This document shows positions 21,405-59,100 of a stretch of DNA of 64,000 nt, one piece after another; position 1 is the stretch's first letter; each line of letters begins with the position of its first letter. A program made the translations under genes and the position numbers. The stretch is taken from positions 99,946 through 163,945 of the forward strand of contig JABISL010000050.1 of the NCBI GenBank assembly GCA_018700055.1. The letters are read 5' to 3'. This stretch comes from a bacterium. Lineage in GTDB: Bacteria > Margulisbacteria > Marinamargulisbacteria > UBA817 > JABISL01. The notes beneath the pieces were generated by a model that ran no database searches, was not told where the DNA came from, and worked only from the letters and a program-made list of their open reading frames with translations.

Positions 21405-22718
21405 CTAAGCGGCTAATTTTGCTTTCGTCTCACTTTTATTATCGATCTCTTTGAGTAATTCTTCACTCAATTCCGTGGACAACTTGTCCTTAATATATTG
21501 AGTGACATTATCTTTAGTAATCGTAATTTTTTTGGCCTTCCCATCTTCTGGGATATTGTACATATGATCCATCATGATTTCTTCGACAATACTTCTTAAG
21601 GCACGGGCCCCAACCTTGCGCTTAATCGCGATCTTGGCTATGAGTACCAATGCATCATCCTTAAACGTTAAGTCTATATTATCCATCTTCATTAGTTTTT
21701 GAAATTGCTTGGTCAAAGCGTTTTGGGGATCCTTGAGGATTGAGAGCAATGCCGTTTCATCCAATTCATGCAGCGGCGCCAAAATTGGTAACCGTCCAAT
21801 AAACTCTGGAATGAGTCCAAATTTCAATAAATCTTCTGGCTGAATCTGCTCAAAGATTGTTTCTCTTTCAGCCGTCACTTCTTTTTGACCGTCTTCGGTC
21901 AAAAAGCCCATAGATCGTTTGTTAATTCGTTTTTCAATTATCTCTTCAACGCCATGAAACGCTCCGCCGGCAATAAACAAGATATTGGCTGTATCTAAGA
22001 GTACAAATTCTTGCTGTGGATGTTTTCGTCCGCCACGTAATGGAACGTTTACCTTGGACCCTTCCAAAAGTTTGAGTAAGGCTTGTTGAACCCCTTCGCC
22101 AGAAACATCTCTTGTAATGGATGCGCTTTCGGATTTTCGAGTAATCTTATCAATTTCGTCCAAATAGATAATGCCTCTCTCTGCTTTTTTCACATCATTA
22201 TCGGCAACCTGAAGCAGGCGCAACAACATGCTTTCCACATCTTCTCCGACATACCCAGACTCGGTAAGTGTCGTGGCATCCGCTATCGTAAACGGCACGT
22301 TCAGTAGCTTGGCTAAGGTCTGAGCAATAAGCGTCTTGCCTGTTCCTGTAGGACCAACCAACATGATGTTACTCTTCTGAAGCTCAGTATCCGGATACGC
22401 ATCGGTCTTTTTGAAAATTCGTTTGTAATGGTTATATACACCAACTGAAATGACTCGTTTAGCGATATCTTGCCCAATAATATGTTTGTTTAGCCACTCA
22501 TTAATTGCCTTAGGCTTGGGAAGAACCATTTGCTCAGCGTCGTCAGCGACGTCGACCGTCTCCGCCTTTTTTTGGCTCTCTTCTTCATGGATAACCGTTG
22601 CGCAAACGTCTATACACTCATCACAAATGTATATGCCTGGACCAGCAACAAGTCGAGTCACTTGGTCTTGGTGCTTGTTACAAAACGAACATACTATCGG
22701 GTCTTTTTCTTTTGTCAT
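21405..22718 (-). CDS. clpX: ATP-dependent Clp protease ATP-binding subunit ClpX
   Basis: N-terminal C4 zinc finger (CSFCNK..CDEC). Walker A GPTGTGKT. Confidence 0.9.
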
Positions 22719-39273: not shown

Positions 39274-39350
<77 letters not shown>

Positions 39351-39441
39351 ATAGTTAGGGTCGAAATTGATTGGGGGACTGATGCGGGGAGTTTTTCTTC
39401 TACCCTTTTTCTACCCGGATGCATTTAACTAGGAGGCTGTT

Positions 39442-39777
39442 TTGTTAACAAAACAAGGAACCCAAAGACTTCATGACAAGCTAAATAAGAAGGGTCTAGA
39501 TGAAGTTGAAATCGAATTGGAAAGTGGTGCTTATCGTGGACCAAAGAAAATCATCGTTTGTTCTTGGATAAAAAAAGAAAAAGAAAAGAAAGCGGGGGAA
39601 ATTCGCCTAGATAAACAAGATGCTAGGGAAGAAGAAAACCTAGCAATTAATAAACAGCAATTAGTCATTAACAAGATCGCAATTTCGAAATCAAACACTA
39701 AAGCAAATTTGGCAATCGGTATCTCCATTGGACTTCCCATAATTCTTAAAATTATTGATTACTGTTTTTTTAAATAG
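39442..39777 (+). CDS. Small Lys/Glu-rich protein with a C-terminal TM helix (element cargo, uncertain)
   Basis: ORF only. Confidence 0.3.
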   Translation: MLTKQGTQRLHDKLNKKGLDEVEIELESGAYRGPKKIIVCSWIKKEKEKKAGEIRLDKQDAREEENLAINKQQLVINKIAISKSNTKANLAIGISIGLPIILKIIDYCFFK

Positions 39778-39786
39778 CGTTTGATT

Positions 39787-40242
39787 CTATTCAACGATTT
39801 TACATGTCCCATTATATTGTGACGTCATTGGATCAATTAATGTTAGATGTCGTGAATAGACCATTGGGTATTGTTGGGTATTTGTTAAAGGCTTTGAAAA
39901 TACAGTAAGTATATTAATCCCACCCCCAGTATATTCAGCAAAAGTAATGCCCTTGCTAATTTTGATTGCCTGAACATCTGTTGATCCACTTCCGATCAAC
40001 CGAGCCGTGCCATTTTTAAGGTCGATAGAATCAAATATTAACGTGGAATCCTCCTTAGACTTAGACCATGTGCTGGCTTTCATACTGGGCCCGTTCTTAT
40101 CCCAAACAGTGAACATTCCCTTGCCTATCTGGCATTTTATTGTTGTCGCTGTTATTAATTCATTGCCTTTAATATTCCCTAAACAGACATTTGAAAAGAC
40201 TATTAATAGAACCAAAACGAGTTTCGTTTTCCATATATCCAT
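39787..40242 (-). CDS. Secreted hypothetical protein (signal peptide), element cargo
   Basis: The internal Met gives a typical signal peptide (MDIWKTKLVLVLLIVFSNVCLG). No homology recognised. Confidence 0.4.
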   Translation of the reverse strand: MDIWKTKLVLVLLIVFSNVCLGNIKGNELITATTIKCQIGKGMFTVWDKNGPSMKASTWSKSKEDSTLIFDSIDLKNGTARLIGSGSTDVQAIKISKGITFAEYTGGGINILTVFSKPLTNTQQYPMVYSRHLTLIDPMTSQYNGTCKIVE

Positions 40243-40298
40243 ACCCCTGCGCCTCATCAAGAGCGGCGCATCAGTGGGTGTGGGGATGTGTGTAAACA

Positions 40299-40502
40299 CT
40301 AACAGTGCATATCCTTCTCAATAGTGATCTTGTAGCCAATCACCTTAAGGATTTCTTTTAGCTCGGCATATTTAATGGAGCCGCGAGCGATTTTTTGGTT
40401 GAGGTTTTGGGTGCTGGTGCCAAGTAATTCGGCAACCTTCGCGACAGTAAATCCTGCCCCGTAAATAATCCCTTTAATCTCGTTTTTGATTTCGTCTGTC
40501 AT
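40299..40502 (-). CDS. XRE/Cro-like helix-turn-helix DNA-binding protein, 67 aa
   Basis: HTH region VAKVAELLGTSTQNLNQKIARGS. Confidence 0.6.
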   Translation of the reverse strand: MTDEIKNEIKGIIYGAGFTVAKVAELLGTSTQNLNQKIARGSIKYAELKEILKVIGYKITIEKDMHC

Positions 40503-40749
40503 AGGCGCTCACTTTATCATAGTTCACTTCAATAAACTAAACTGTTTATAGAAGATGCTTGACTGTTTATTCATAAGTATTTATACTATAAATGTATTCG
40601 TTTATTAGATAAATCTTTTAGTGGAGCGGGGTGATAAAACAAATAACAAATCAGGATGGGTGAAAAGAACGGACTCTCGCTTAAAAGGCCAATCCTTTTG
40701 CACCCGTCCTAAGCATATCAAAAACAAACAATTCTGCTTAGGAGCATCT

Positions 40750-40947
40750 ATGGAACTATTAACCAAACAAGAACTAGCCAACTATCTAAAGGTACGGGTC
40801 AAAACAGTCTGTTACCTTCTCTATTCCAAACAACTACCCAAAATCAAAGTGGGCAGAGAATACCGATTCATCAAAACAGACATCGATAAATGGATCGCAT
40901 CGCAACGACAAGAAGTACGAACCTACTCCTTCAAAGGCATCCATTAA
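40750..40947 (+). CDS. xis: Excisionase / AlpA-like HTH (Xis)
   Basis: MELLTKQELANYLKVRVKTVCYLLYSKQLPKIKVGREYRF matches the excisionase HTH_17 pattern. TAATG overlap with the int start. Confidence 0.6.
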   Translation: MELLTKQELANYLKVRVKTVCYLLYSKQLPKIKVGREYRFIKTDIDKWIASQRQEVRTYSFKGIH

Positions 40948-42065
40948 TGGCCTTCCTTAAAGAAGTCCCAGGAAAAAACAAACCCACCTTTTACATCATC
41001 TACAAACAACCGGTACGCCAACCGAACGGTACCGTTATTAATAAAAAGAAATGGCTCAACGTAGGGCACGTTAAATCAAACGCCCACCAAGCACTACGAG
41101 CCTTTAAGAAAGAGTACGACGCCAACCGAAGTAAGTTCACACTCACGCAAACAGTCCTCTTCTCTACCTTCGTAAACGAGTCATTCCTCCCCTGGTGCAA
41201 ATCCAGAAAAAACGAAAAAGAATATGCCAGGACCTGTCATTCGATATGTTTGATGGTGGGGTTCTTTGGGCCCATTCGACTCAATGACCTTACGACAAAA
41301 ATGATTGAAGACTATGTCACATGGCGAAAAGAACGAAAGACACGTGACAAGAGTATTTCCAATCGAACAGTCAATATTGACCTCATTTACCTATCCCAAT
41401 GCTACAACAAAGCTATCGAATGGGAAGTTGTAGAGAATAATCCCTGCAAAAAAGTATCGAGATTAAAGGAGCCCAAAAGTCGTGTGCGTTTCTTTAGTGT
41501 TGAAGAAATAGGCCATCTCATCTTTGCGGCGAACCCGTATATCAAACGGTTCTTGATCGTCGGTCTCTCTACGGGCATGCGACATAGTGAGTTGTTGAAT
41601 CTAAAGCTCTCTCAGATCGATATGGTTAACCAAACCATCCACATCACTAACGATGAGACGTTTCAGACGAAGAGTGGGAAGAATCGGGATATTCCCATCT
41701 CGTTCTTTCTCATGGATCACCTCGTCCAAATGATGAAAACATGGGCCCACCCTATCACCTGTGAAGTGCGACCTCGCACGTCAGCGCAATCGACTTATTT
41801 GTTCTGCAACGAGAAGGGAGAACCTCTCAAGAGCTTTAAGCGATCGTTCTATTCATTGCTTGCCCATGCCAATGTCTCAAACGCCACCGTCCACACCATG
41901 CGCCATACATTCGCCTCTCATCTCGTGATGAAAGGCGTGAGTATCCGAACGGTTCAAGAGCTGCTTGGACACTCTTCAATCAGTGTTACGGAGATGTATG
42001 CCCATTTGAGCAGTGGGTTTAAGAAGAAGGAGATTGATTTGCTGGATTACGGGGGCTTGGGCTAA
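40947..42065 (+). CDS. int: Tyrosine-type site-specific integrase
   Basis: C-terminal catalytic region (HTMRHTFASHLVMKGVSIRTVQELLGHSSISVTEMYAHL) with R..H..R..Y signature residues. Confidence 0.85.
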   Translation: MAFLKEVPGKNKPTFYIIYKQPVRQPNGTVINKKKWLNVGHVKSNAHQALRAFKKEYDANRSKFTLTQTVLFSTFVNESFLPWCKSRKNEKEYARTCHSICLMVGFFGPIRLNDLTTKMIEDYVTWRKERKTRDKSISNRTVNIDLIYLSQCYNKAIEWEVVENNPCKKVSRLKEPKSRVRFFSVEEIGHLIFAANPYIKRFLIVGLSTGMRHSELLNLKLSQIDMVNQTIHITNDETFQTKSGKNRDIPISFFLMDHLVQMMKTWAHPITCEVRPRTSAQSTYLFCNEKGEPLKSFKRSFYSLLAHANVSNATVHTMRHTFASHLVMKGVSIRTVQELLGHSSISVTEMYAHLSSGFKKKEIDLLDYGGLG

Positions 42066-42108
42066 TTGTGCAATTTATTGCGAGTGAAAGTTGCACAATT
42101 ATGCACAA
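42066..42108. promoter_or_regulatory. Operator-like repeats TTGTGCAA-N17-TTGCACAA plus a third half-site, upstream of the RhuM::Doc gene
   Basis: 8-bp inverted repeat seen in sequence, followed by an additional tgcacaa half-site at 42102. Confidence 0.3.
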
Positions 42109-42202
42109 TTAGGAAAACCACCTCTCACATGGACAATGATGTGAGTGTAACGTAAGATAATTACTATTTTATTTATTTATTGACGTAACTAGGAGAAACA
42201 CC

Positions 42203-43237
42203 ATGAAAACTACAAAAGAAAACCAAATACTGATTTTTAAATCCGACACCGGACCGGAAGTCGATGTGACACTTATTGATGAAAACATATGGCTCACACA
42301 AGCGCAAATGGCGGAGTTGTTTGAGAGAACAAGAGAAAATATAACCTTGCACATTAAAAATATTTTTAATGAGGAAGAATTGGATGAAAAAGTGGTATGT
42401 AAGGAATCCTTACATACCACTCAACATGGTGCTTTAAAGAAAAAAACACAAACTAGCACCGTCAAACTCTACAATCTTGATGTCATCATTTCAGTGGGTT
42501 ACCGCGTTAAATCCAAACGTGGGACGCAGTTCAGGATATGGGCCAATCGGGTTCTCAAGGACTATTTGATTCAAGGGTATGCCGTCAATGAGAATAAGCT
42601 CAAAGGCCAGACCCAAAAGATTAAACAGCTTGAAGCGACGATACAATCAATCGTGTCAGCGTCAGACCAAAAAGAGTTAACGAATACTGAGGCCAAGGGT
42701 GTATTGAGGGTAATTCAGGACTATACCCTGGCATTGGACCTATTGGACCAATACGACCATCAAAAACTTCAAATAGAGAATACAAATAAACAGACCGGAA
42801 CTGTGATTAGCTATGAAGAGGCGATGAATGCCATCGCGACATTAGAGCAGAAGTTCCGAACCGATGGGGAATCTGTAGGGTTCTTTGGAAAGGAAAAAGA
42901 CGATTCATTCCGCAGTTCCATTGCTACGATATACCAGACCTTTGATCAGAAAGAGCTATACCCAAGCATCGAAGAGAAGGCAGCGCATCTCTTGTATTTC
43001 GTTATCAAGAACCACTCGTTTGTTGATGGGAATAAGCGAATCGCAGCGTTTGTGTTTGTTTGGTTCTTAGAACGAAATGATTACCTATATGCCCCTGATG
43101 GTAGACGCAGGATCGAAGATAACGGTCTTGTTGCACTCTGCTTATTGGTAGCTCATAGCAAACCGGATGAAAAAGACGTCTTCGTTAAGTTGATCGTGAA
43201 CTTGATTAATAAGCGGAATGGAGGGAACAACGGATAG
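42203..43237 (+). CDS. RhuM-family N-terminal domain fused to Doc/Fic-family domain (HxFx(D/E)GNKR motif)
   Basis: RhuM-like N-terminus (ITLHIKNIFNEEELDE..YNLDVIISVGYRVKSKRGTQFRIWANRVLKDYLIQG). Doc-type motif HSFVDGNKRIAAFVF near the C-terminus. Confidence 0.75.
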   Translation: MKTTKENQILIFKSDTGPEVDVTLIDENIWLTQAQMAELFERTRENITLHIKNIFNEEELDEKVVCKESLHTTQHGALKKKTQTSTVKLYNLDVIISVGYRVKSKRGTQFRIWANRVLKDYLIQGYAVNENKLKGQTQKIKQLEATIQSIVSASDQKELTNTEAKGVLRVIQDYTLALDLLDQYDHQKLQIENTNKQTGTVISYEEAMNAIATLEQKFRTDGESVGFFGKEKDDSFRSSIATIYQTFDQKELYPSIEEKAAHLLYFVIKNHSFVDGNKRIAAFVFVWFLERNDYLYAPDGRRRIEDNGLVALCLLVAHSKPDEKDVFVKLIVNLINKRNGGNNG

Positions 43238-43318
43238 TTAACCACAATTCCACATTTGCTACGGCGCTCCCTTGATGGGCGCCGTGGTGGATTTGATGGA
43301 TAACTTTGAAGCTTTCAA

Positions 43319-43642
43319 TTGAAAAGAATAGTGTTCCGTAGAATAATACTTAGCATGCATAAAAGAATCGAAACTAACGATGACGTTACTATTATTTTTA
43401 AATATTACCCCTTGTTCTATCTTTGTTTTATAGGGTTATTAATTTCCGAATTTTTCCCTCCTACTATTGGTGGAATAATTTCAATCGCTATAACTCTATT
43501 ATTTAGTATATATATTCTCGGCAACATTAAAGTATGGTTTGAAATTAGAAAAGCTATGAAAGTTGGCGATGTAAAGATATCAGGTAGCAAATTCTCATTT
43601 TCTAATCCATTAACCTTCGTAATAAAAAAACAACAGAAATAG
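43319..43642 (+). CDS. Small membrane protein (2 TM), element cargo (uncertain)
   Basis: ORF with two hydrophobic helices. Confidence 0.3.
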   Translation: MKRIVFRRIILSMHKRIETNDDVTIIFKYYPLFYLCFIGLLISEFFPPTIGGIISIAITLLFSIYILGNIKVWFEIRKAMKVGDVKISGSKFSFSNPLTFVIKKQQK

Positions 43643-43783
43643 AAACAATAAGATCTATCCATCACTAATTTCTTCTACCTTTTTCTACCCACTTCAACTT
43701 AAACCAACAAACCCGTACGCACAAACAGTGGAATGAACGAAAAGGTGGAATATCAAAATACGTGCGTGGAGAGTGGTGGGGGA

Positions 43784-43831
43784 AGGACTTCTAATCCGTA
43801 GGTCAGTGGTTCGAATCTACTCGGGCGCACC
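43784..43831. repeat. attR core (displaced partial tRNA-Arg 3' end)
   Basis: Exact duplicate of 39303..39350. No 5' half of a tRNA is present. Confidence 0.85.
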
Positions 43832-43901
43832 AATTAGATAAGATTCACTTGCTCTACGCCCAAGATGAATCACGGAAACTCGAAATAAATTCGATCCTAT
43901 A

Positions 43902-44606
43902 TTAAGCCGAAGGGGTTCTTTTTTCGTTTGAAAGAGCTAATGTTTGCAGAACTCTTAAGTACTCATCGGGCATATAAGATGACCCGTCACCGGCAGAACA
44001 CGCCTCATTGTCATATAGAAATGGTACATCAAAGTGTTTTGACCAATCCAATACCATTTTCGACGCCCGGTGTCTCTCTTTTCCATTACCAACAATCAAT
44101 GTCTGGCCGTCCTTCTGATGGTCATAGTCCTTCAATGGCATTAGTCGATCTGTAGTAAAAATAAGCATGTTTTCTTGGTCTTGATCTTTAACAATATCAG
44201 CTGGATTCAGCAGAATGCCATTATAGTCTTGCTCTACAGGAACCTCCCTTTGTACCCGATGCCCGATAAGTTTGTCGTTAGAATCAAAAACAGGTGTGCC
44301 AAATCCCCCTAAGTTGGCATGTGCGGGGACAAACATTGATACCATCTGTACGTCTCCCTGAGAAGGAATCCCTTCTAAAAGGTCTAAGACCTTCTCTTCA
44401 TTGAAAAGGTCCCAATTAGATTGATTTCCTGTAAGCAGTTGATGCGTTGTAAAATTCCCTCGTTCACTACTGAGGAAGGCATTCAAATCGGCCAATTCTT
44501 GAATTTTTTGGTGTGATGTATAGTCAAAGTCCATGATAACTCTACGGTCATCTAGGCTTACGATAAGGTAATCGTGAAAGGCCTCACCTTTTTCATTTAA
44601 GGACAT
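43902..44606 (-). CDS. C-terminal fragment carrying the His/Asp part of a transglutaminase-like cysteine-protease core; probably the downstream half of the preceding gene, split by a frameshift
   Basis: AFHDYLIVSLDDRRVIMDFDYT resembles the TGase-like H..(G)W..FDPT segment. 10-nt out-of-frame overlap with the upstream ORF at an A6 run. Confidence 0.5.
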   Translation of the reverse strand: MSLNEKGEAFHDYLIVSLDDRRVIMDFDYTSHQKIQELADLNAFLSSERGNFTTHQLLTGNQSNWDLFNEEKVLDLLEGIPSQGDVQMVSMFVPAHANLGGFGTPVFDSNDKLIGHRVQREVPVEQDYNGILLNPADIVKDQDQENMLIFTTDRLMPLKDYDHQKDGQTLIVGNGKERHRASKMVLDWSKHFDVPFLYDNEACSAGDGSSYMPDEYLRVLQTLALSNEKRTPSA

Positions 44607-47600
44607 CTTTTTTCTGTTTCAAACCCTAACGCCGAAAAGATAATCCGTCCTAGCTCAGCCTGATGACGACAAACGCCCTTTTGAAAATAAAGCGAGTCAT
44701 ACAAAAGGTTTCCTGTCTTCTGGTCAGCCGGACTATCCATCTCCATAAACCCGTCAAAGTAAGTAAAGATACCTGCCAACATATCGGTCTGTGACACCCC
44801 ATCCTGAATGAGTATATTTAATGCGATTAAAAGACTCTCTTTTGTATAGTTCGCAGGCACTAACTTGGCATGTATAAATCGTTTAAGAATGTCATTCAGA
44901 TCGATCAATTCTTCATTCAATATATCCAAATTGCGTTGGCCTTCTTGCTTAAACAACGGAGTTGATCGCAACTCAGAATAGAGAGGCAGTGGATCGTCGA
45001 ATGTTACATCTACGGTTAATGACTGTGACTTTGCGTTAAAGATTACTCGTTCTTTTCTATCAAACATCTGCTCACATTCATTTGGTGGGCACTGTAAGGC
45101 GTAACCTGCTTCGTTATACAACGACATGGTGGCCTGGTTACTTCCCATAAGACTAGGGACTAGAAGCGTTTCGCCTGGCGCCAAAGTTGCACTAATCGTG
45201 TTTGGAGTAGTCACGCGTTCAGGTATTTGGGACATCTTAACCATTAAGTCAGCCGCGTACTCCAAAAAAAGTGCCTTCGTGCCAGTCCAATTCCTTTTGG
45301 GCGTAGCCTCTCCAGGTATTAGGTCATATCGACGTGCTGCAGCCGCCTTCTCTTCCATCTGATTCAGATTACTAAGAGTTAAAAATGAGCCTTCACGACG
45401 TGCCACAGCCGCTTTCCTTTCCGTCTGTATCTTCTCTTTTATCGGATTCACATTACCTAGGGGAGATAAGGGGGCTTGAGGGGGGGTAGGAGGAACGTTT
45501 CCAGGTAATGAGTCATAACGACGTGACGCAGCCACTTGCTCTTCCATCTCTGCCTTCTCTTCCATCTGATTCAGGTTATCAAGGGATAAGGGCGTTGGAA
45601 GACCGTTTCCAGGTGTCGCTGGAATCGCCTCTCTTTCAAATTTAACCGGCTTTAGCTGAATTGTTTTTCTGTGCCTAAAAAAAACGGCGTTTAATAAATG
45701 GTGTGCCGATTTTTCTGCACGTTCCAACCCTTCTTCTTGAATCTTCTGTCCCAGTTTTTTGGCAAACAAGATCAATTGTCTGGGGGTCGGAGGGTTATTA
45801 ACATCTTGAATATTCTCGTCGATGTAGAGGTCGGCGAATACGACTACTGCCCACTTCAGGGGGACCTCATATTTGGCACTTGCCCAGTCTATTAATCCCT
45901 TCATGTACTCCGTTCTATCCCTCTTACCCGTGGGTGACGTAAGATGTACCGTTGAAAAAGTCTGCTCATTTAATTTAAAGCGATTACTAATTTGAGACTG
46001 CGCGTTTTGAGTCCCAATGATTTTGATGTTTTTACCTTGTATAAAATGAAATATTTCATTGAGCTGTGCGGGTGAGATTAAATTAATTTCCGATATTTGA
46101 AAAACAATATTCTTGCCTGGGTGTTGTTCATGAGTATCGACGATTTGTTCCAGTAGTGGCTGATCTGGTGCCGAAGTAATTTCTTCGACATGAATATTGT
46201 CAGCGTTCTGGCCTAGCATCTTTAAAAAGTGCTTAGTAAGCGCATCTTTTCCAAGACCGGGGGCGCCTTCTAATATAAGCCATTGTGGGTCATTCGTTGC
46301 AAACTCAGAAAGGGCGTCAAATACCTCTCTAGCGATATCATTATCCATATATAAAGAACTGTCATTAAAATAATCTTGCTTGAGAAGCTCAGGGCTAACT
46401 ATATTCAGGTGCGTAGGGGTCGATGACTTGTGTGTCGGTGCGTGTGTTTGAATGCCTTTTACTTGATACCAGTTGTCACGATATTGCAGTTTCCATTTCC
46501 CCATATGTTTCTTAAAATTGGCAACAATATCTAACTTGGGTTTTGTTGGGATCCTTATGACTTGGTCTTTGAGATACTCTTCAATTTTCTGTGTGTCTTC
46601 ATTATGGATCCCTTGTTGAGACAACTGGCGGTCTATGTTTTTTCCAAAGTCACTCAAATACTGATATATCACGACATCAGATTCTTTAGTCGAATGTTTT
46701 TGATATACCTCGTCTGGAAGACGGGTTAATAAATATCGATGCGGCGGTTTGTCTGTAGATGAAACAGCGTTTAATTCACCATCGCTTTGGACTACAACAA
46801 GTTCGTTTTGAGACACGTTGTGTTTACTCTTCTGTTCTAGTGTAATTATATCTAATTCTAGTGCCTGAACGGTCGTTATACGTGATAATTGTTTATACCG
46901 TAATTGGTCCGCTCCTAACTCATCGGTCTTAGGTGAAGATGGCTTATTTTGGTACTGCAGTGAATACTCATCTATATAATCACTGTCAATTCGATTTTGG
47001 ACATCTTTGGTTAGGTCATTATAGTGGCCTACAACTATGATTTTAACGTGGTCGGAAATCTTTCTGCCTAACCAGCGTCGATCTTGTAATAAGTCATTGT
47101 GTCCCGAATTAATATCATCTGTAGGGATAATAAGTACTGTAGGAAGTGTTGTGCCATACAATGTTTGCTGGGTATCCAGATCTTGGCCTGTCTCTTCTGT
47201 ATGTTGCTTGTACAAACTACTCGGTGTAATCCTTTGAATGTTTTTTGACCCTAGATCCCTTAAAAATTGAGGTAGAAATTGGTCTGGGTTTGTTTCTATA
47301 AACGTAAACTCAAAGGAAAGTAAGTCAGAAAGTTTAAAAGACTCATTTGCCATCACATCCTCACGACTTACAAACGGAGTGTGTTTCATCACCTGTTCTG
47401 TGAAGCTAGGCGACCACTTCTCACAAGGAATATGTTTTATAAGGGCGTTAACTACGTTTATAGGTATAGTCATATGGAAAGAGTAGGACTTCTGATTATG
47501 ATTAATAACCTTGATAACATCCGTAAAGTCGGCATGCTGATTAATGGCCTCGGCAACCTCCTTGTTATCTAATAATTCCTGGGAGAATTTGGATAAGTCA

Positions 47601-47995
47601 CGATACCCGCCTTCTATGGCCTTAACTGCGAACGGTACATTATCTCGCGTAATCACCAGGGATATTTCAGGCCAATACTCAGGGTGTTGAGTAATCACTT
47701 TCATCCAAAAATCCCGATCTTCCCGAAGAGGGCTCTTTATCATGGTTCGCCATTTTATGTCTTTAGATATAACTGCTAAGGCAAGGTCCTCATTACTCCT
47801 AAGTCTATTAGAAGCGAGAAAGAAAGAGTGGGGGTCTTTCTGAATTGCAGCCAGAACACACTCATACCTATCCCTATCGCTGTCTGGTAGCGGGGTTCTG
47901 TGCGATAATTCCTTACAGCCTGGTTGATGAACGGGTTCTCCACGGACTTGAGTCGCGGCATATGTTGTTGCTGCTAATGTTATTAAACGAATCAC
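44597..47995 (-). CDS. Large secreted protein (1,132 aa) with degenerate P-loop (GAPGLGKD), internal ~45-aa tandem repeat, and C-terminal TGase-like Cys motif (GVCRHQ) truncated by the stop
   Basis: Signal peptide. P-loop-like motif. Repeats (LDNLNQMEEKA..RRYD..PG). The TGase-like catalytic Cys motif lies ~8 aa before the stop. Confidence 0.6.
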   Translation of the reverse strand: MIRLITLAATTYAATQVRGEPVHQPGCKELSHRTPLPDSDRDRYECVLAAIQKDPHSFFLASNRLRSNEDLALAVISKDIKWRTMIKSPLREDRDFWMKVITQHPEYWPEISLVITRDNVPFAVKAIEGGYRDLSKFSQELLDNKEVAEAINQHADFTDVIKVINHNQKSYSFHMTIPINVVNALIKHIPCEKWSPSFTEQVMKHTPFVSREDVMANESFKLSDLLSFEFTFIETNPDQFLPQFLRDLGSKNIQRITPSSLYKQHTEETGQDLDTQQTLYGTTLPTVLIIPTDDINSGHNDLLQDRRWLGRKISDHVKIIVVGHYNDLTKDVQNRIDSDYIDEYSLQYQNKPSSPKTDELGADQLRYKQLSRITTVQALELDIITLEQKSKHNVSQNELVVVQSDGELNAVSSTDKPPHRYLLTRLPDEVYQKHSTKESDVVIYQYLSDFGKNIDRQLSQQGIHNEDTQKIEEYLKDQVIRIPTKPKLDIVANFKKHMGKWKLQYRDNWYQVKGIQTHAPTHKSSTPTHLNIVSPELLKQDYFNDSSLYMDNDIAREVFDALSEFATNDPQWLILEGAPGLGKDALTKHFLKMLGQNADNIHVEEITSAPDQPLLEQIVDTHEQHPGKNIVFQISEINLISPAQLNEIFHFIQGKNIKIIGTQNAQSQISNRFKLNEQTFSTVHLTSPTGKRDRTEYMKGLIDWASAKYEVPLKWAVVVFADLYIDENIQDVNNPPTPRQLILFAKKLGQKIQEEGLERAEKSAHHLLNAVFFRHRKTIQLKPVKFEREAIPATPGNGLPTPLSLDNLNQMEEKAEMEEQVAASRRYDSLPGNVPPTPPQAPLSPLGNVNPIKEKIQTERKAAVARREGSFLTLSNLNQMEEKAAAARRYDLIPGEATPKRNWTGTKALFLEYAADLMVKMSQIPERVTTPNTISATLAPGETLLVPSLMGSNQATMSLYNEAGYALQCPPNECEQMFDRKERVIFNAKSQSLTVDVTFDDPLPLYSELRSTPLFKQEGQRNLDILNEELIDLNDILKRFIHAKLVPANYTKESLLIALNILIQDGVSQTDMLAGIFTYFDGFMEMDSPADQKTGNLLYDSLYFQKGVCRHQAELGRIIFSALGFETEKRCP

Positions 47996-49123: not shown

Positions 49124-52100
49124 ATGTGCACGATAATTAGCATGAACAAACAAATAAGCCCATTTATCGTATTAATGATGATCATTGGAATTTTCCTATT
49201 AAATCCAACAGCGACATTTGCAGGGTTTTCTAAAACTAACGCGAAAACTGCGTTGATGGCACAGTCTAAACAAGTCATATCATTACGCTATACATCTAAT
49301 AGTAAGACCCCTTCCTTTGTAAAAGGAAAATTTGCCTTTTCTCGTTTTCGAACTAAACAAAGTGTGGCGAAAGCCTTTATGGGATCTACATTGCCCAAGG
49401 CTTTGGGTTTAAAAAATGTGCGGTCTAGAAACTTTAAGCAAATCCGACAAATTCGTGATGCTCATAAACAACGTACTATTGTTCGGTTAAAACAAGACTA
49501 CGAAGGCATTCCTATTTTTGCCAGTGACGTCGCTGTACATATTTCAGATCAAAATGAAGTACTACTAACATCAGGACAGTTTCATGACATTCGATTGAAG
49601 ACTACCCGCCCCAAGATTTCAGGTCTTGATGCAACGAATATTAGTAACGGCTTGATCGGTAAATCCGGTAAGTCCGATCCTGCAACACTAGAAATATATA
49701 CGATTAATGGGAGTTCCCAATTAGTATGGCATGTCGTCACCAAGATCTCAGACCCCGTTGAAGAATGGCACTATTTAATTAATGCAGAAACGGGTAAGCG
49801 CGTTATCTTTTATAACAATATTCAAGACACCAAGCATCGCAAGACGCATGACGCCAATCATGGCTCATCCTTACCCGGAACATTGATCCTAGATGAAGAT
49901 CAAGGGACCTCCACTGATAACGAAATCAATACCGCTCATGATCATATGGGAACCACCTATGACTACTTTAAGGATACCTTTGATAGAGATAGTTATGATG
50001 ATAACGGGGCTATATTATCAACAACCGTTCATTATGGATCCAACTATGTAAATGCCTATTGGAATGGATCTCAATTAGTATTTGGGGATGGGAGTGGGAA
50101 TGTAGGTCCCCTCGGGAACGCGCTAGATATCGTCGCTCATGAATTGGGCCATGCGGTAACCTCACGAACAGGGAATATGACTTATTACAGTCAACCAGGG
50201 GCACTCAACGAATCCATGAGTGATTTTTGGGGGGCTATGGTGGATAGAGATGACTGGAATATGGGTGAAGATGCTTGGAGTCCGAATGACCCAAGTATAG
50301 CGCTGCGATATTTCGAAGACCCTACTCTAGGAAATCAGCCTGCTCATATGGATAATTACTATACCGGAACTGGTGATAACCAAGGTGTTCATATTAATAG
50401 TGGCATCCTAAACAAAGCGGCCTACTTAGTTGCTACCGCTATTACCAGAGAGAAAGCCGAAACAATCTACTACAGAGCGTTAACCACTTATTTCACTCAG
50501 AGCACTAATTTTTTGCAGGCCCGAACAGCACTCGAACAATCCGCAATCGATCTGTATGGGGATAACAGTTCCGAGTTACAGGCTGTGACGACTGCATTCG
50601 AAGCGGTAGGCATCATTCCCCCACCACCCCCAGCAGGTGATTTTGAAGGGATTTATTTTTCAGATCCTTATTCAACGCCTCACCCTTATACCGATAATAC
50701 AACGTACACGAAAACATACACTCACCCTGGCGCAGCGGCGATGAAGGTAGTGTTTACGAATACCAATGTTGAGGCAAACTATGACTTCATCCGAATAAAA
50801 AATGCGGATGGTCAGACAATCTATACCTATGATGGCAATTTAGGAGACTTTACCACCGGGCCTGTGAGTGGCGACACCATTACCGTTGAATTTATAACCG
50901 ATTATAGCGTTACCGGTTATGGATTTGATATCACTGGCTACCATGCGGACCTATCAATAGGAGATATGATTGATCCTGTGACTGACTTCAGTGCCATATC
51001 CACTGGAAATGTCGTCGACTTAACGTGGACTCTTCCAAGTAGCCCTATTTTAAATAATGTAGAGTTGAGACGAAAAACAAACGCAGACCCTGATAATCAT
51101 GGAACGAAGGTATTCGAGCAACTAACGTCAAATTTCACCGACGGCCCTTTAATTGAAAACACTACCTATTATTATGAGATTTATGCAGTGACAACCGCCA
51201 AGGATTATTCTGTCATTACTACTCTGAATGTTACGACGGTAAATAGGCCTCCCGCGGCACCTATAATGGCCATCGTAGAAACAAGTACGCGCAACGTGTC
51301 TCTGTCATGGACGAACCCTGAAGACCTCGACTTTAGAACTGTGGTTATTCGACGCAGTACCACTCACTCGCCTACATCCCTTACTGACGGAACGCATGTC
51401 AGTGAAGTGTTCGGAAACATCATTATCGACCATGGCCTGGACCCTGGTACCGACTATTTTTACAGTATCTTCGCCAAAGATGCGGGAGACCTCTATTCCA
51501 TTCCAGCAACCGCAAGTGTGACTACGCTTGGCATCAAGATCCCTGTACCTGAGAGTCCTGAATCTGAGCCTATTGAAATCGGCCAGATAAAACTCAATGG
51601 CGTAGACTTCACTGGTCAATCAAATGTCATCTCTACATTACCGAAAATCGAGTTTGATTTAAACTATCCTATAGATACAGCAATTGACGTCACCGTGCGT
51701 GTAAGAATTATGAAAGAGTCGTCACAAACACAGGCGCGGGCCTTTATGATTCAATCTACAAGCCCCCAAAAAATCACTCTAGATTTGAATGAGAACCACG
51801 GACTCGAGTTTAGTACCACGGCTCTAAATGACGCCTTGAAACCGAATACGGCCTATTATCTTGAAATCGATGTTGAGGACACCACTGGTATCCAACTAAC
51901 CTTCAGAACCAGCGCCTTTCAAACAGCAGCAGATATATTATCCGTAACCAATTTGTTAAATGGTCCCAATCCGTTTAACCCAAGTGCGGAATCTACAACC
52001 ATTCAATTCGAACTGGCCAAACAAGCCGATATATCTCTCTACATCTACAGCCTTAGTGGCCAACGGTTATGGACCAAAGAGATCTCTCAAGCAAACACCA

Positions 52101-52243
52101 TAATTGGAATGAATACGATCGATTGGAATGGAAAAGACCAAAGTGGACAGTATGCACCGAACGGAATGGTTGTTCTTTACTTCATCGCCAAAAATGAGAC
52201 CAAGACGATCAAACGAAAACTTAAAATAGGGGTCTTACGATGA
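49124..52243 (+). CDS. Secreted M4 (thermolysin-family) zinc metalloprotease with FN3/Ig-like repeats and a type-A T9SS-style C-terminal sorting domain
   Basis: HEXXH (VAHELGHAV) plus third-ligand box (NESMSDFWG). The C-terminus (NGPNPFNPSAESTTIQF..ISLYIYSLSGQ..TIDWNGKDQSGQYAPNGMVVLYFIA..KRKLKIGVLR) matches the Por-secretion CTD consensus. Confidence 0.8.
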   Translation: MCTIISMNKQISPFIVLMMIIGIFLLNPTATFAGFSKTNAKTALMAQSKQVISLRYTSNSKTPSFVKGKFAFSRFRTKQSVAKAFMGSTLPKALGLKNVRSRNFKQIRQIRDAHKQRTIVRLKQDYEGIPIFASDVAVHISDQNEVLLTSGQFHDIRLKTTRPKISGLDATNISNGLIGKSGKSDPATLEIYTINGSSQLVWHVVTKISDPVEEWHYLINAETGKRVIFYNNIQDTKHRKTHDANHGSSLPGTLILDEDQGTSTDNEINTAHDHMGTTYDYFKDTFDRDSYDDNGAILSTTVHYGSNYVNAYWNGSQLVFGDGSGNVGPLGNALDIVAHELGHAVTSRTGNMTYYSQPGALNESMSDFWGAMVDRDDWNMGEDAWSPNDPSIALRYFEDPTLGNQPAHMDNYYTGTGDNQGVHINSGILNKAAYLVATAITREKAETIYYRALTTYFTQSTNFLQARTALEQSAIDLYGDNSSELQAVTTAFEAVGIIPPPPPAGDFEGIYFSDPYSTPHPYTDNTTYTKTYTHPGAAAMKVVFTNTNVEANYDFIRIKNADGQTIYTYDGNLGDFTTGPVSGDTITVEFITDYSVTGYGFDITGYHADLSIGDMIDPVTDFSAISTGNVVDLTWTLPSSPILNNVELRRKTNADPDNHGTKVFEQLTSNFTDGPLIENTTYYYEIYAVTTAKDYSVITTLNVTTVNRPPAAPIMAIVETSTRNVSLSWTNPEDLDFRTVVIRRSTTHSPTSLTDGTHVSEVFGNIIIDHGLDPGTDYFYSIFAKDAGDLYSIPATASVTTLGIKIPVPESPESEPIEIGQIKLNGVDFTGQSNVISTLPKIEFDLNYPIDTAIDVTVRVRIMKESSQTQARAFMIQSTSPQKITLDLNENHGLEFSTTALNDALKPNTAYYLEIDVEDTTGIQLTFRTSAFQTAADILSVTNLLNGPNPFNPSAESTTIQFELAKQADISLYIYSLSGQRLWTKEISQANTIIGMNTIDWNGKDQSGQYAPNGMVVLYFIAKNETKTIKRKLKIGVLR

Positions 52244-53164: not shown

Positions 53165-56100
53165 CTACTGATACCCCGCTCTGTTACGTCCACCAAGAGC
53201 GGCTGAGCCAGGTCGCACCATCTTCAACTTAGAGGGATCTACACTTTGTAGATCCACAAACTGTGTATTATGTTGAGCGGCTTGCTGCTGCTGAGCAAAT
53301 TGCTTTGTGTAAAACTGATCAGAAGAAGGTGTCTGGGCATGTCCTTTTACTCCTCCCAATGTATTAGGGGCATGAAAGGTCTGTCCCGTTTGCGCCGCTC
53401 GCAAATCAGCTGCTGTTCGTTTTGCATCATCTATTGATACACCTGATCTGCCAGGAGCTGATCCGAGAGTATTAAGGCGTCGAGTTGCGCTCATGGCCGC
53501 ATCACCTTGTTGATTTGCACCAAGTACACTTCCTGCCTGTTTTACACTTATCTTAGATGGACGCGTAGCATTAGGATTACTCAAAGAGTTATTGGGTAAT
53601 CCCCCCTCAGATTGGGAGTTCATCATTCCTTGGTTATTGGAATGATTCACTACAGGTGTTTTCGTTGGGATCTGTCGAGGTGTCGTCTGAGGAGACGGTT
53701 GCGAGGACGCTGACTGACTACTCGCCTCTGGAATAACCACCGGGGCGGGTACCGTTGGTACAGCACCTGGTGACTGGCCATTACTCACCCGTTTAAGATA
53801 GTCCACTTGAGCCTTCATATAACCTTTCGCCCATCCATCACTTTTGTCTGAGTTGCCACCTCTTCTTTCAAGGGTATTGGTATAGCTATTATGTAACAAA
53901 TAGATCGGGAGCGGCTCCAGTGGGATATCGTACTCATCCCCTTTGTAGCTTGTGTTTGACGGGTTCGGTTTCATGTCCCTAACCTCTAGTCCCACATAGT
54001 TGCCGCCCAATTCCTCATTCTTGTTAACCTCAACCAGGGCATACTGCCTAAAATTTTCTCGTTGTCCTTTCTTAGTAAGCGAATATGTAATGGCAGTCAT
54101 TCTTTTTTTATTAATGTTGAGCTTTATGTTCACCGTTAACGTTCGGCTTTCATCTCTGTTATGGAGTCCCGATACATTTCCATCGAGGCCATTAGCTTTT
54201 AAATAGGCGCGTTGATTATCGATGGCCTGAATTGATTCGTTGCCCCAATCCGTTAACCAAGGTGCCCCTGTCGCCATGTCTGATTGATTGAGACGTCCCG
54301 CAAAAAGTAGAATTCGTTGCCACGTGGCTTCGTGATTATCATATTCTGTTCTTAGTGCAGAGGCCACTTTCCATCCAGGCACATTTTCTTCTTTCGCTTG
54401 ATAGGCTTTCTTATACTCATTTTCTGCTGTTTGTTTTGCTGTGCTAGCAGCATTAAAAATATTCTCTGGGTTTTTTTCGCCTTTTTTTCGCGATTGTCCC
54501 CGGTTATTGTCTTCTAGGTTTCTACCCACATTATCATTATAAGCTTTGTGTACCTCTTTAGCTTCCTCAAATTTACGGTTCGCACTCATCATTGTCGCGT
54601 GTGCTTGCTTGTAGTTGGCAACAACGTTGTTATGGGCTCTTTCCTTCTCTGAATCAACTTGCGGTCGTCCTCCTATACTCTTAATCCAGTCGCTCCACTC
54701 GAAGGGCTTGCCTATGGCTGAAGGGTCATCCGATTTGAGAATGCATCGCTCTTGGATGTCGATCAGTGATAGTCCTTCTGGAAGCGTCTCTTGATCAATC
54801 AATGAACTGGCTTCTCGTGGCGATAATAAGACCATTTTGATTGGGTTTCCGCCATTTTTTTTATCCTCTCGTTTGTCCATTAGTAAATATCGAGGTGTGG
54901 CTACGATAGCATCACTCTCGGCTAAATCTGCGAATGACTTGGAAACAGCAAAGTCGTTTAATTCTTCGAATCTAAAAGCGCTACCCCCTATTTGGGATAA
55001 TCGTTGGTGCCCAAATACATTTTTGGAATGACCATTCAGCCCCAATATACTTATTTGTGCATTTCGCACGTTCACTACTTTTCCCCCGGTTTTGGCAGTA
55101 ATCGGTACCATAGGTCCAAACAGGCTGTCTTGGGATAAGGGCCTCTCTGCGTGTGGAACGCCCTCTATAGACCTCGGTGAGTCGCCAAAGATGTCTAGAC
55201 TTTGTTGGTTCTGCACCTGGGTTTCCATTTGCTCCTGAGTTTGACCCATCGCTTCCTGTTGCGTCTCAACTTGAGTTACGGCTTCTTGGGTTGTATCCAG
55301 TTCCAACTCTTGCTCCTGCCCCTCTTGTTCCTGGACCTGCTCTTGAGTCATCTTAGGGGTCCCGTCATCTTTCATGCGCTCATTCAGCAATCCTTGCTCT
55401 TTTAATTTTTTCTCTCGATAATTCAAAGCTTTGTTCATTTCAGTCATAAACCTTTGTTGGTCTGATTGGGTTACGTTTAGCGCTTTAATTTTTTCTGTGT
55501 ATTTGGCTTTTAGCTTGGTCATCAGGCTCGCATAGGTTGGGGGTTGATTAACCGTTTGATAGGCCTCAAAGGCATCCTCTGAGTAGGTCGAAAATTGAGA
55601 TTGCTCGTTAGAATAATCGCCCTCTACGTTAGTGGCTCTAGACTCTCCAGCCACCTTCAAAAATAAGGCTTCTAAAACCGGTTCCGTCTCCCGCATCATA
55701 TGGTTGGTTCGCAGTACCTTCTGACTATTGATGGCTGCTGCAGCAATAAGGTTTCCTCTTGTCAGACCTTTTCCTGCTAAGCCTTGCAGTGTCTTAAGGG
55801 TACTATTGGGCACTATAAACTCATACATGGCATGAGTCTGCCCTCTTTTTTTGTCCATACGGCCGGCTCGGCCCATCATTTGATTAAGCTCATCCTGTGA
55901 AAGGGTCTCCATATCGCAGTTGGCCAATAGTCGATGATTCATTTGAAGCACTTCTGGCGCACTAAATCCGCGAGTCGCCTTGGGGCCACCAAAGATAATA
56001 TAGTTTTGTTTTTTGGGATCAAAATCGGGGTCTTTTCTCCCGAGTAGTGTTTTGTAGTCAATGACCTCATAGGTCACCTGCCCATTATTGCCCCTTTTAG

Positions 56101-59100
56101 GGATCACTACCTTTTTAATGGCCTCGCCGCCTTCGGGAGGGACATAACGAATCACAACGCCATCTAACTTGATTCTATTATTTGTCCCATTTAGCAACTG
56201 CAAAAACGCCTTGGCCATGTCTTCGTCACTCTTCGCAAATGACTTGCGAGCATCTAAGACCACTTGGATTGGATGGTCTGTCCCAAAGCTCTCACTCACT
56301 CGTGTTGCCATATTATTGAATAATGTTTGGCTATCATAGTTGTCGTCTACAGCGGTAAGCGTCTCCGTTCTATTATTATTATTTGTCCTTAACAGATCCA
56401 TTCGCTCAGCGGCACTAGTATCTTCCGCTACTTCACGATCATATTCTTGAAGAAGATCTCCAGTGGCAGTCAGTCCATAATCAGCCTTCACCATATGTCG
56501 CATATCATTCGGAGTGGTTACAAACACCCGTTTGGATCGAGGGATACCTGTCTTGATGATGGTCTCCCAAACCACACGGAGGGCCGCGGGGTCTTTATTT
56601 AATTCGGGCAATATTTCTTGTTTCATCGCCGGAGTCATCATCATCTTGATGATGTCGGAGGTCTCAGAAGCGGTAGCCTCGATCTGCTCATTAATTTGCT
56701 CTGCAATGGATACGATCATAGGATTAGGGTGATTAAGATAGGCAACATATTCCTCTGCCATATAACCAATAAAGTGCTTATATTGGGCATCGGTAGTAAT
56801 TCCTTTCGCCATTAGTGAATTGAACGTAGCAAAGGCTACATCCTCAATCTCACTATATTGATTGGCTGTTTTTTCACCCCCATCCAGGCCGGTAGCATAG
56901 ATCTGGTCTCTTACCCCATAATGTCGATCCACTTCTTGTCCCAATTGCGAGGTTAATGACTTGATGGATGCGATAGCAAAAAGCACTTGTTCTTTGATTT
57001 GTTTTAATTGGGGATTGTTTGGTCCCATCACATCTTTGAATAGTGTCTCTTCAATGAACGACGTTTCATTGTCAGATAACTTTCTACCTCTACCTTGAGC
57101 GGTTACTAAGGTTCCTGTCATGAGAGCCGTGAATAAGTCTTTTAAGGTAACATTATTAAGTGAGCCTACGTCTTGTTTCATTAACCCATCGACAGTGGTG
57201 TTGGCCAATCCACTATGAATAGTCGGCAGCATATCGTTAAAAAGAGCCTCCTGTAATTGGGTCACGGCTTGCGGGTTCCCTGGCATTAGTCGATATCCAC
57301 TGCCAGGTGTTGCTATGATTCTGTGCTGTTTGGCTCGGGCAGTAAATTGATCAACTAACCCACTAAGAATAGAGGCTTGGTCCTGATTTAAATTGGATGG
57401 CTCTCTACTCTGAGCATCATTATATGTTTCTCTTAAGGTCTGAGTTGCGGCATTCACTGCATCCGCTTCATCGGTGATTAGTGTGGTATTTTTTAGTGCC
57501 ACCATAATCTCTCCAAGTAACTTGGCCGCCTCTGTTCCAGCGCCAGTTTTATTCTTTTCATGAAGGATAATATTGTTGAGATTATTTAGTGATTTGAGTG
57601 CCGTTGGCGCCATGGCATACGAGAATCCAGCATCTCTTACAAACAGACTATGCAGGTGCCTGATATAGGGTAACGATCTTTTGGCGTCTGATTTGGATGG
57701 CGGAGCGATGCTTATGACCTCCAAATGTCTAACGAGACCCTTCGTATTTTCATTGATTTCTTGTGCGGTCACATCGGCTAGCGGGCTAATTAGAATGCTC
57801 CGTTTATGAGCAGCAAGAAGTGCTGGTACCGCTTGGGAGGATTTTCCGGACCCCGTCCCTGCAATCCCAATATCTACTTGAGAAGAGCTGCTCGAGGGGT
57901 CGGTGAGTAAATATTGAAAGTCATCCACCGCGCCAGCGACTAAACGAATCACTAAGGCCGCTTGTTCTGGTGTTCCTCGGAACCCATTGGCATGTTCCAT
58001 CCCCATAAACGACAAAAGTAGCTTCTGCATAACGGGGTCATCGCCGCGTTCCAACAATCGATCTAGTCGATATCCTCGTGGCCTATCCAAGTACTGATTG
58101 AGTTCGGTGTGCGCTTCGTTAGATACTACATTCTGAAAAACCGATGGCGGTGCAATAAGCCGGTCTACTTGTGATATACACTGCTTCCTATGATTGTGGT
58201 CCGTATCTACAATGAGGTATCGCATAGCAAGGTTTACAACCCGTTGGCGATCTTGATCATGCAACACTAGTGTAGGATCAAGTTCCCAAAGCCCTTCTTC
58301 CTCTCTGAGGACAATTTTGAGAATATCATCGATGGACCACTCTTTTTTCTGGGCATTGCTGGTCACAGCCGCTACACTCAGAATCGCCTTCATGTCTGCT
58401 TCTATTCGTCCTTTTTCTTCCGTTTCTAAAGCCCCTTGCTTAGTGAGTTCTGACTTCATCCCTTTTAATTGGGCCTGACTATAGTTAGTCTGGCTAGTCC
58501 ATCCAGGAATTCCAGTGAGCGCTGTTGCCACCGTCCTAGTGTACCCTTCTGCCCATGTGAGTAGGCCTTCATTCCGAGGTGCGTCCGTTCCTGTATTCTG
58601 TTTTAGCTCTGATGTTTTTCCAGCAATATAACGGTTTACATCATTTTGATATTTAATATCCGGGTCTATTGGATCTGACGTATAGGGCATGATCTCAAGT
58701 TGGCTATTATTGGATAGCCATTCACCCATCTGAACCAGCATTTTTAAATCCAGCTTAGTACTGGCTGAGTCACGTAGGTCCTCTTTCCCATAATTTGCTA
58801 CAACCGCTACAAAATGATTCTTCGCTGCATCAACAATTTGTTGGCTTGGTAGTGCCTGGGTATAGTTACGGTGTAATAGTTGTGAAAAAAACTGGAGCAT
58901 CATTTTGGAATGATCTATGCCGGAACCAATATTTGATAAGGACATTACCCATTCTTCCTCTGTCTCGTTTAAGGAACGAGTAGCCCAATTAGCCATCAAT
59001 TGGTCGGTATGCCCTTTCCAATCTGGAGTACCGCCATTATCAATAACCTGACCTAATTCTTTGTTAATTGTTCGCCATTTACTTAGGCGGGATCCTTGAT

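Follow-up and report, generated by a model that had tools for sequence, protein, structure and literature searches.

A probable recent one-nucleotide deletion in a poly-A tract splits the gene for a predicted AAA+ and transglutaminase-like protein in a member of the Marinamargulisbacteria

Two overlapping open reading frames (ORFs) in a Marinamargulisbacteria genome (GenBank assembly GCA_018700055.1, contig JABISL010000050.1) raise the question of whether they encode two separate proteins or are the remains of a single gene and, if the latter, how that gene came to be split. The ORFs occupy positions 43902..47995 of the 64,000-nucleotide stretch of DNA analyzed here (hereafter the window, the numbering of which is used throughout; all features of the gene lie on its minus strand). 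A preliminary description of the locus, made from the sequence alone, took the two ORFs to be one large protein with a P-loop and a transglutaminase (TGase)-like catalytic core, broken by a one-nucleotide insertion or deletion in a run of adenines between the catalytic Cys and the His/Asp part of the core, and offered four mechanisms: sequencing error, recent pseudogenization, slipped-strand phase variation, and programmed frameshifting. The proposed split of one multidomain protein is borne out by relatives that are single-frame at this position, and the locus is probably best explained by a recent, pseudogenizing deletion of one nucleotide at a poly-A hotspot, in a rare gene family that is recurrently inactivated.

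Two overlapping ORFs derived from one gene

The upstream ORF (ORF1, 44597..47995; 1132 amino acids [aa], GTG start) is the 5' fragment of the ancestral gene and ends in a premature TAA. Its N-terminus is only weakly hydrophobic and varies across the wider family, and the secretion suggested in the preliminary description is poorly supported. A DUF4116 repeat, a predicted AAA+ domain, and a beta-rich domain follow, and the fragment closes with the half of a TGase-like core that bears the Cys. The downstream ORF (ORF2, 43902..44606; 234 aa) is read in the -1 frame with respect to ORF1 and represents the 3' fragment, with the His/Asp half of the core and a conserved C-terminal alpha/beta domain. 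The overlap between them is 10 nt, with the ATG of ORF2 at 44606..44604 and the TAA of ORF1 at 44599..44597. On the coding strand, the junction reads GGG TTT GAA ACA GAA AAA AGA TGT CCT TAA, and the frame is broken at a run of six adenines (A6; 44608..44613, coding GAA AAA AGA), with translation ending three codons downstream. The C-terminal end of ORF1 reads FQKGVCRHQAELGRIIFSALGFETEKRCP up to the stop (in a longer stretch, YFQKGVCRHQAELGRIIFSALGFETEKRCP up to the stop), and ORF2 opens with MSLNEKGEAFHDYLIVSLDDRRVIMDFDYT. Adding one A to the A6 run gives a single ORF reading ETEKKMSLNEKGEAFHDY. The ORF coordinates, motifs, and one-A repair of the preliminary description all hold, as does the restoration of a single protein, although three of its figures needed correction: the repaired protein computes to 1364 aa instead of about 1,366 aa; the ORF1 stop, placed 8 aa after the motif, is 23 residues after the Cys of GVCRHQAEL (a distance of 8 holds neither from the Cys nor from the last residue of the motif); and the Cys-to-His spacing is +32 instead of +33.

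The family to which the repaired protein belongs is tiny. An exhaustive HMMER search of 1.84 billion representative proteins found 15 members. Two proteins were returned when the repaired C-terminal 463 aa served as the query of a word-indexed search, and the family alignment recovered no relative from the GTDB species genomes. All nine relatives that cover the junction (P0001, P0002, P0004, P0005, P0008, and the more distant P0011-P0014) are single-frame there, in line with the single ORF that the preliminary description expected of orthologs, and the repaired window reading aligns gap-free at the junction with the close relatives. Across this position, P0002 reads ALDIPVEKKMSNNPEGESFHDY (in a shorter excerpt, VEKKMSNNPEGESFHDY), P0001 reads GIPVEKMISPNHEGDPFHDY, P0004 reads GIHVGKIVSLNHQGVPFHDY, and P0005 reads GIPVEKKHTLNYEGEPFHEY. 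Because these nine relatives carry the Cys, His, and Asp segments contiguously in one frame, the restoration of the frame in the window is not due to chance. The ATG of ORF2 corresponds to an internal Met in relatives (KKM in P0002, KM in P0001) and, as this Met is conserved internally, it is not considered a genuine start codon.

The poly-A tract encodes a conserved Glu-Lys-Lys (E-K-K) and ranges from A5 to A8 in lineages where the run is uninterrupted. P0002 has A7 (GTA GAA AAA AAG ATG TCG), P0005 has A8 (GAA AAA AAA), P0001 has an A6 that is in frame (GAA AAA ATG), and P0004 has A5 (GGA AAA ATA); the run is interrupted in P0008 (GAA AAG AAA). The window has an out-of-frame A6 (ACA GAA AAA AGA TGT CC), which is the P0002-type sequence minus exactly one A. 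Since P0002 has A7 at the same place, the window allele most plausibly represents a one-nucleotide deletion, and the spread of lengths from A5 to A8 fits a slippage hotspot.

The A6 allele is reproducible across assemblies. The exact ORF2 protein was found on six metagenome contigs that differ in sample accession and assembler, each with an identical overlap with the upstream ORF, and A6 was present in all five contigs whose DNA was read directly (from SPAdes-, MEGAHIT-, and scaffold-type assemblers). Over 3-6.7 kb, those five contigs differ from the window at 0-2 positions (99.97-100% identity). A 228-kb JGI contig and an NCBI metagenome-assembled genome (MAG) encode the same two ORFs, which points to the same allele; in the MAG, MBT5856495.1 ("DUF4116 domain-containing protein [bacterium]") is identical to ORF1, and MBT5856494.1 is ORF2. 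An artefact of sequencing or assembly, with a true genome that has A7 and an intact gene, is extremely improbable. Homopolymers are classic sites of base-calling error, and one contig has low coverage (L001, 3.35), but a run of six is short for a systematic short-read error, and random sequencing error is effectively excluded because A6 occurs in five contigs from different assembler types and the two-ORF layout in two further assemblies.

A transglutaminase-like core divided between the ORFs

Sequence comparison and structural modeling support the repaired region as a transglutaminase-like Cys-His-Asp domain. The putative catalytic residues are Cys1109 in GVCRHQ (codon 44669..44671), His1141 in FHDY (44574..44576), which lies past the frameshift, and Asp1156 in MDFDY (44529..44531). 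In a family alignment (A3), the corresponding C220, H252, and D267 are invariant in all seven members, and the Cys stands at the start of a predicted helix (220-233). This Cys-His-Asp order, with Cys at a helix start, is canonical for the TGase-like superfamily (PF01841), which includes, for example, TgpA of Pseudomonas aeruginosa (6g49/6g4h), a putative protease of Cytophaga (3isr), LapG (4fgo), PeiW/PeiP, and the arylamine N-acetyltransferases.

The PF01841 search proposed in the preliminary description stayed below the gathering threshold of 23 bits. The repaired 127-aa core scored 13.9 bits (E = 0.069), and the same region in relatives was likewise sub-threshold (P0001, 15.1 bits; P0005 and P0013, 14.0 bits each; P0012, 12.7 bits). 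The full repaired protein had no PF01841 match at E ≤ 10; against Pfam and NCBIfam, it matched DUF4116 and, weakly, AAA only, with no TGase match, and a profile search of PDB sequences gave 0 matches. The TGase-like assignment was nonetheless supported by the invariant Cys-His-Asp residues, by a profile-profile link to genuine PF01841 proteins, and by fold matches. For example, a tblastn search of metagenomes identified 13 distant loci (E = 6e-8 to 6e-6) that share an SQKGVCRH motif, and all seven of these that were translated read ...GIPTRMVxNEAHAWVEV...RIDLGG. One scanned metagenomic protein (L092) passes PF01841 at 26.8 bits, and an hhalign comparison of the window family (A1) with the metagenomic proteins (A2) gave a probability of 96.4% (E = 1.1e-9). 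The repaired C-terminal 475 aa, when modeled with AlphaFold (mean predicted local distance difference test score [pLDDT], 69.8), matched transglutaminase-like cysteine proteases, consistent with a TGase/papain-like fold. The window family and the PF01841-passing metagenomic proteins (SQKGVCRHRAFAF...NEAHAWVEV...RIDLGG) have the GVCRH motif in common, whereas the His of the window family is found in an FHDY context and not in HAWxEV. The family also differs from the superfamily in that its core sits behind DUF4116 and AAA+ domains in a protein of 1250-1580 aa, an architecture that we could match to no described family.

Age of the lesion and repeated inactivation in the family

The segments beyond the frameshift are as similar to their counterparts in relatives as those relatives are to one another. 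In the post-frameshift part of the TGase core, identity was 50-55% between the window and relatives (48-58% among the relatives themselves), and in the C-terminal domain it was 35-42% (38-46% among the relatives). ORF2 also lacks a second lesion, with no further stop codon or indel. Taken together, the undiverged post-frameshift segments and the lesion-free ORF2 suggest that the disruption is recent relative to the divergence of the lineages. The locus thus combines a reproducible disruption, a frame that is intact in homologues, and freedom from secondary decay, which are the features of a recent pseudogene.

Lesions at other places in the gene were found in three further close lineages, each in two to four contigs. 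In contigs L006-L008, a CAA-to-TAA nonsense mutation (L006, 7995..7997; GAC TAA TCG versus GAT CAA TCG in L109) affects a conserved Gln in the predicted AAA+ domain. In L010 and L011, the frame is shifted near an A5 run (L010, ~690..720), close to ACATAAAAATAAG. In L105-L108, the N-terminal DUF4116 module is encoded in a separate, out-of-frame ORF that shares 46 nt with the main ORF (L105, 2634..2679). An intact single ORF was seen among close relatives in P0005 only, as well as in the distant P0011-P0014. The rest of the window appears intact, as do the neighboring genes that were looked at in the contigs of relatives. Because a nonsense codon can be neither bypassed nor rescued by slippage, these lesions suggest a family that is prone to inactivation, and they are most simply explained together as repeated losses of a gene that is dispensable or costly.

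Explanations for the split

In the explanation that we consider probable, an ancestral A7 (GAA AAA AAG, E-K-K) would have lost one A via ordinary replication slippage, in a gene for a protein of about 1364 aa with predicted DUF4116, AAA+, beta-rich, TGase-like Cys-His-Asp, and C-terminal domains. The catalytic Cys, in ORF1, would thereby have been parted from His, Asp, and the entire C-terminal domain, in ORF2. The gene would then be a pseudogene of recent origin or, at most, the source of a truncated product devoid of catalytic activity, although non-programmed slippage might yield trace full-length protein (on the order of 1%). The locus resembles homopolymer-indel pseudogenes in its single-base change in an A run, in the in-frame tract of intact relatives, and in the stop a few codons downstream. 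Nothing essential sets it apart from them; the unusual feature is the presence of independent lesions in three further lineages. Several observations weigh against a simple pseudogene. Four of the five close lineages carry an independent young lesion, which is more than simple neutral decay predicts, and ORF2 keeps a clean 234-codon frame with all family-invariant residues, as it would under selection on an expressed product. The 10-nt overlap could in principle allow a separate ORF2 protein to be made via termination-reinitiation. In addition, every copy of the window allele belongs to what is essentially a single clone, too uniform for a population-level test (dN/dS, tract polymorphism).

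In one alternative, the frameshift would be tolerated or useful, with ORF1 producing a truncated DUF4116/AAA+ protein and ORF2 being translated via termination-reinitiation, in which case the two halves might reassemble into an active core. The ATG/TAA arrangement is compatible with translational coupling, ORF2 is fully open and conserved, and long open fragments have been kept past lesions in other lineages too. We nevertheless judge a functional split unlikely, as the break falls within the catalytic core, between Cys and His, and the initial Met of ORF2 is one that relatives conserve inside their proteins, rather than a dedicated start. No Shine-Dalgarno-like sequence is placed to serve the ORF2 ATG, and no promoter-like site lies upstream of it (in a scan for promoters and terminators around the gene, no signal exceeded the level expected from shuffled sequence). 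Each lineage is also broken at a different point, leaving no conserved split architecture. Slipped-strand phase variation, in which A6 and A7 would form a reversible switch and the sampled population would be in the OFF state, also fits part of the evidence: the break lies in a homopolymer of lineage-variable length (A5-A8), another lineage, too, has a frameshift near an A run, and recent inactivation has recurred across the family. Tracts of 6-7 A are, however, short for a contingency locus, and slippage cannot reverse the nonsense codon found among the other lesions. Moreover, A6 alone was seen in the five directly read contigs, which represent one clone at the consensus level. The 90%-identity clusters of either ORF contained no intact 1364-aa allele, and a search of JGI metagenome contigs for the exact DNA pattern with A5-A9 at the junction gave 0 matches and hence recovered no alternative allele, although assemblies are consensus sequences in which minority alleles are hidden. 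Phase variation at this tract is decidedly unlikely. It is also rather unlikely, if slightly less so, that the recurrent independent young lesions signal antagonistic selection, for example on a costly effector or one recognized by a host or phage, with the poly-A tract acting as a reversible or leaky switch.

Programmed recoding, whereby -1 ribosomal frameshifting or transcriptional slippage would regularly give the full-length protein, is very unlikely. The shift needed is indeed -1 on an A run, a tRNA-Lys in the P site could shift its pairing from one AAA to another while the A site holds AGA, and an AGGG lies 10 nt upstream of the site. The -1 site of Escherichia coli dnaX consists of A AAA AAG with an upstream Shine-Dalgarno-like element and a downstream stem-loop, and the window shares with it an A run followed by G, the -1 direction, and the AGGG spacing. 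In contrast to dnaX, the window heptamer is out of register: the zero frame reads GA A AAA AGA, no X XXY YYZ heptamer is present, and the A-site tRNA that decodes AGA cannot re-pair on AAG. No stimulatory structure was detected either, as the stability of the RNA downstream does not exceed that of shuffled sequences (z = -1.10 over 58 nt and -1.45 over 108 nt). The arrangement is also unconserved; the AGGG, which encodes Leu-Gly, is missing in relatives, the two-ORF layout occurs at the site in 0/9 homologues, and P0002 has A AAA AAG in the zero frame inside an ordinary single ORF. As in known cases of rescue by transcriptional slippage (Thermus dnaX, insertion sequence [IS] elements, and E. 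coli 9A genes; PMC1088944), an additional A in the mRNA would restore the frame, but productive slippage has been described on runs of 9 A/T, sometimes 8 (PMC1088944), compared with 6 in the window. What is left is leakiness: in E. coli, -1 suppression at sites that are not programmed has been documented at about 1% (PMC10861913), and nothing suggests more than about that proportion of full-length product here. From the four mechanisms initially put forward, recent pseudogenization is the one that remains: an error in sequencing is effectively excluded, the defining features of programmed frameshifting are lacking, and phase variation finds no support in the consensus sequences of the one clone.

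The AAA+ module and other domains

The central part of ORF1 (45716..46408, residues ~530-760) is supported by modeling as an AAA+ fold, which upholds the earlier P-loop call at the level of fold. A model of residues 1-760 (pLDDT 80-88 over ~530-720) matched dynein AAA modules, Drg1, NSF, ClpC1, and Lon, with E values of 4e-7 to 1e-4, whereas the Pfam AAA model scored 13.7 bits, below its cutoff of 21.2. The motifs of this domain depart from canonical Walker A (GxxxxGK[ST]) and Walker B (hhhhDE) patterns. Its Walker A, GAPGLGKD (46244..46267), has Asp in place of Ser/Thr after Lys, and its Walker-B-like strand, IVFQISE (46088..46108), has Ser-Glu in place of Asp-Glu. Every family member inspected has the Lys-Asp (GKD) and an SE(I/L)NL core, and the site could represent either a degenerate or an unusual nucleotide-binding site.

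The DUF4116 repeat (47759..47863, ORF1 residues 45-79) is the sole above-threshold Pfam match. The C-terminal domain (44004..44453) lies wholly in ORF2 and is conserved, with the motifs FGTPV, IGxRxQxEV, and LIxGxGxxxxRA, but gave no informative match. In relatives, a linker of 75-150 aa separates this domain from the core and in P0001, P0002, and P0008 holds two hydrophobic, transmembrane-like segments, an optional hairpin in the family architecture; the linker is absent from the window protein, where the corresponding position is 44454..44500. Within ORF1, a segment of the form L(D/S)NLNQMEEKA...RRYD(S/L)(L/I)PG occurs twice (45344..45583; residues ~805-835 and 874-895) and resembles an internal duplication in a low-complexity linker, a region that P0001 mostly lacks. 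A comparison with the PADLOC defence models yielded 0 matches.

Genomic surroundings

The frameshifted gene stands just outside a 4.5-kb integrative element (~39303..43834), the end of which is 68 nt downstream of the ORF2 stop. The element is bracketed by a perfect 50-nt direct repeat (39303..39352 and 43785..43834), one copy of which is the 3' end of a tRNA-Arg(TCT) gene (39274..39350), and within it lie genes for a tyrosine integrase (40890..42065), an HTH_17 excisionase-like product, and a RhuM/Fic protein (42203..43237). A plus-strand gene two genes away from the split one encodes a 1039-aa thermolysin-like protein (Peptidase_M4; 49124..52243) with faint C-terminal matches to fn3 and FlgD_ig-like domains. 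A giant ORF of 3587 aa (53165..63928, minus strand) has no Pfam domain at E ≤ 0.001 and adjoins a 303-aa ORF that is also without a match. Elsewhere in the window, the product of clpX (21405..22718) is at most 60% identical to those of GTDB species representatives, the best match coming from an unclassified groundwater MAG and the next ones from Rickettsiales, Bdellovibrionota, and others. A second frameshifted gene was considered for the overlapping ORFs at 3807..5165 and 4954..6669 but rejected, since the first ends normally and the overlap stems from an upstream alternative start.

Implications

For annotation, MBT5856495.1 and MBT5856494.1 are best regarded as fragments of one frameshifted gene and not as two proteins, which accounts for the existence of ORF2, currently labeled "hypothetical." As a candidate for recoding, the site is negative, and the phenomenon itself, a base lost from a homopolymer, is ordinary. 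The pattern of repeated inactivation would be worth following only if population data were to show switching or selection. More broadly, the locus reveals a tiny, undescribed family that appears to couple an atypical AAA+ module with a transglutaminase-like cysteine-protease fold and that has apparently been inactivated repeatedly.

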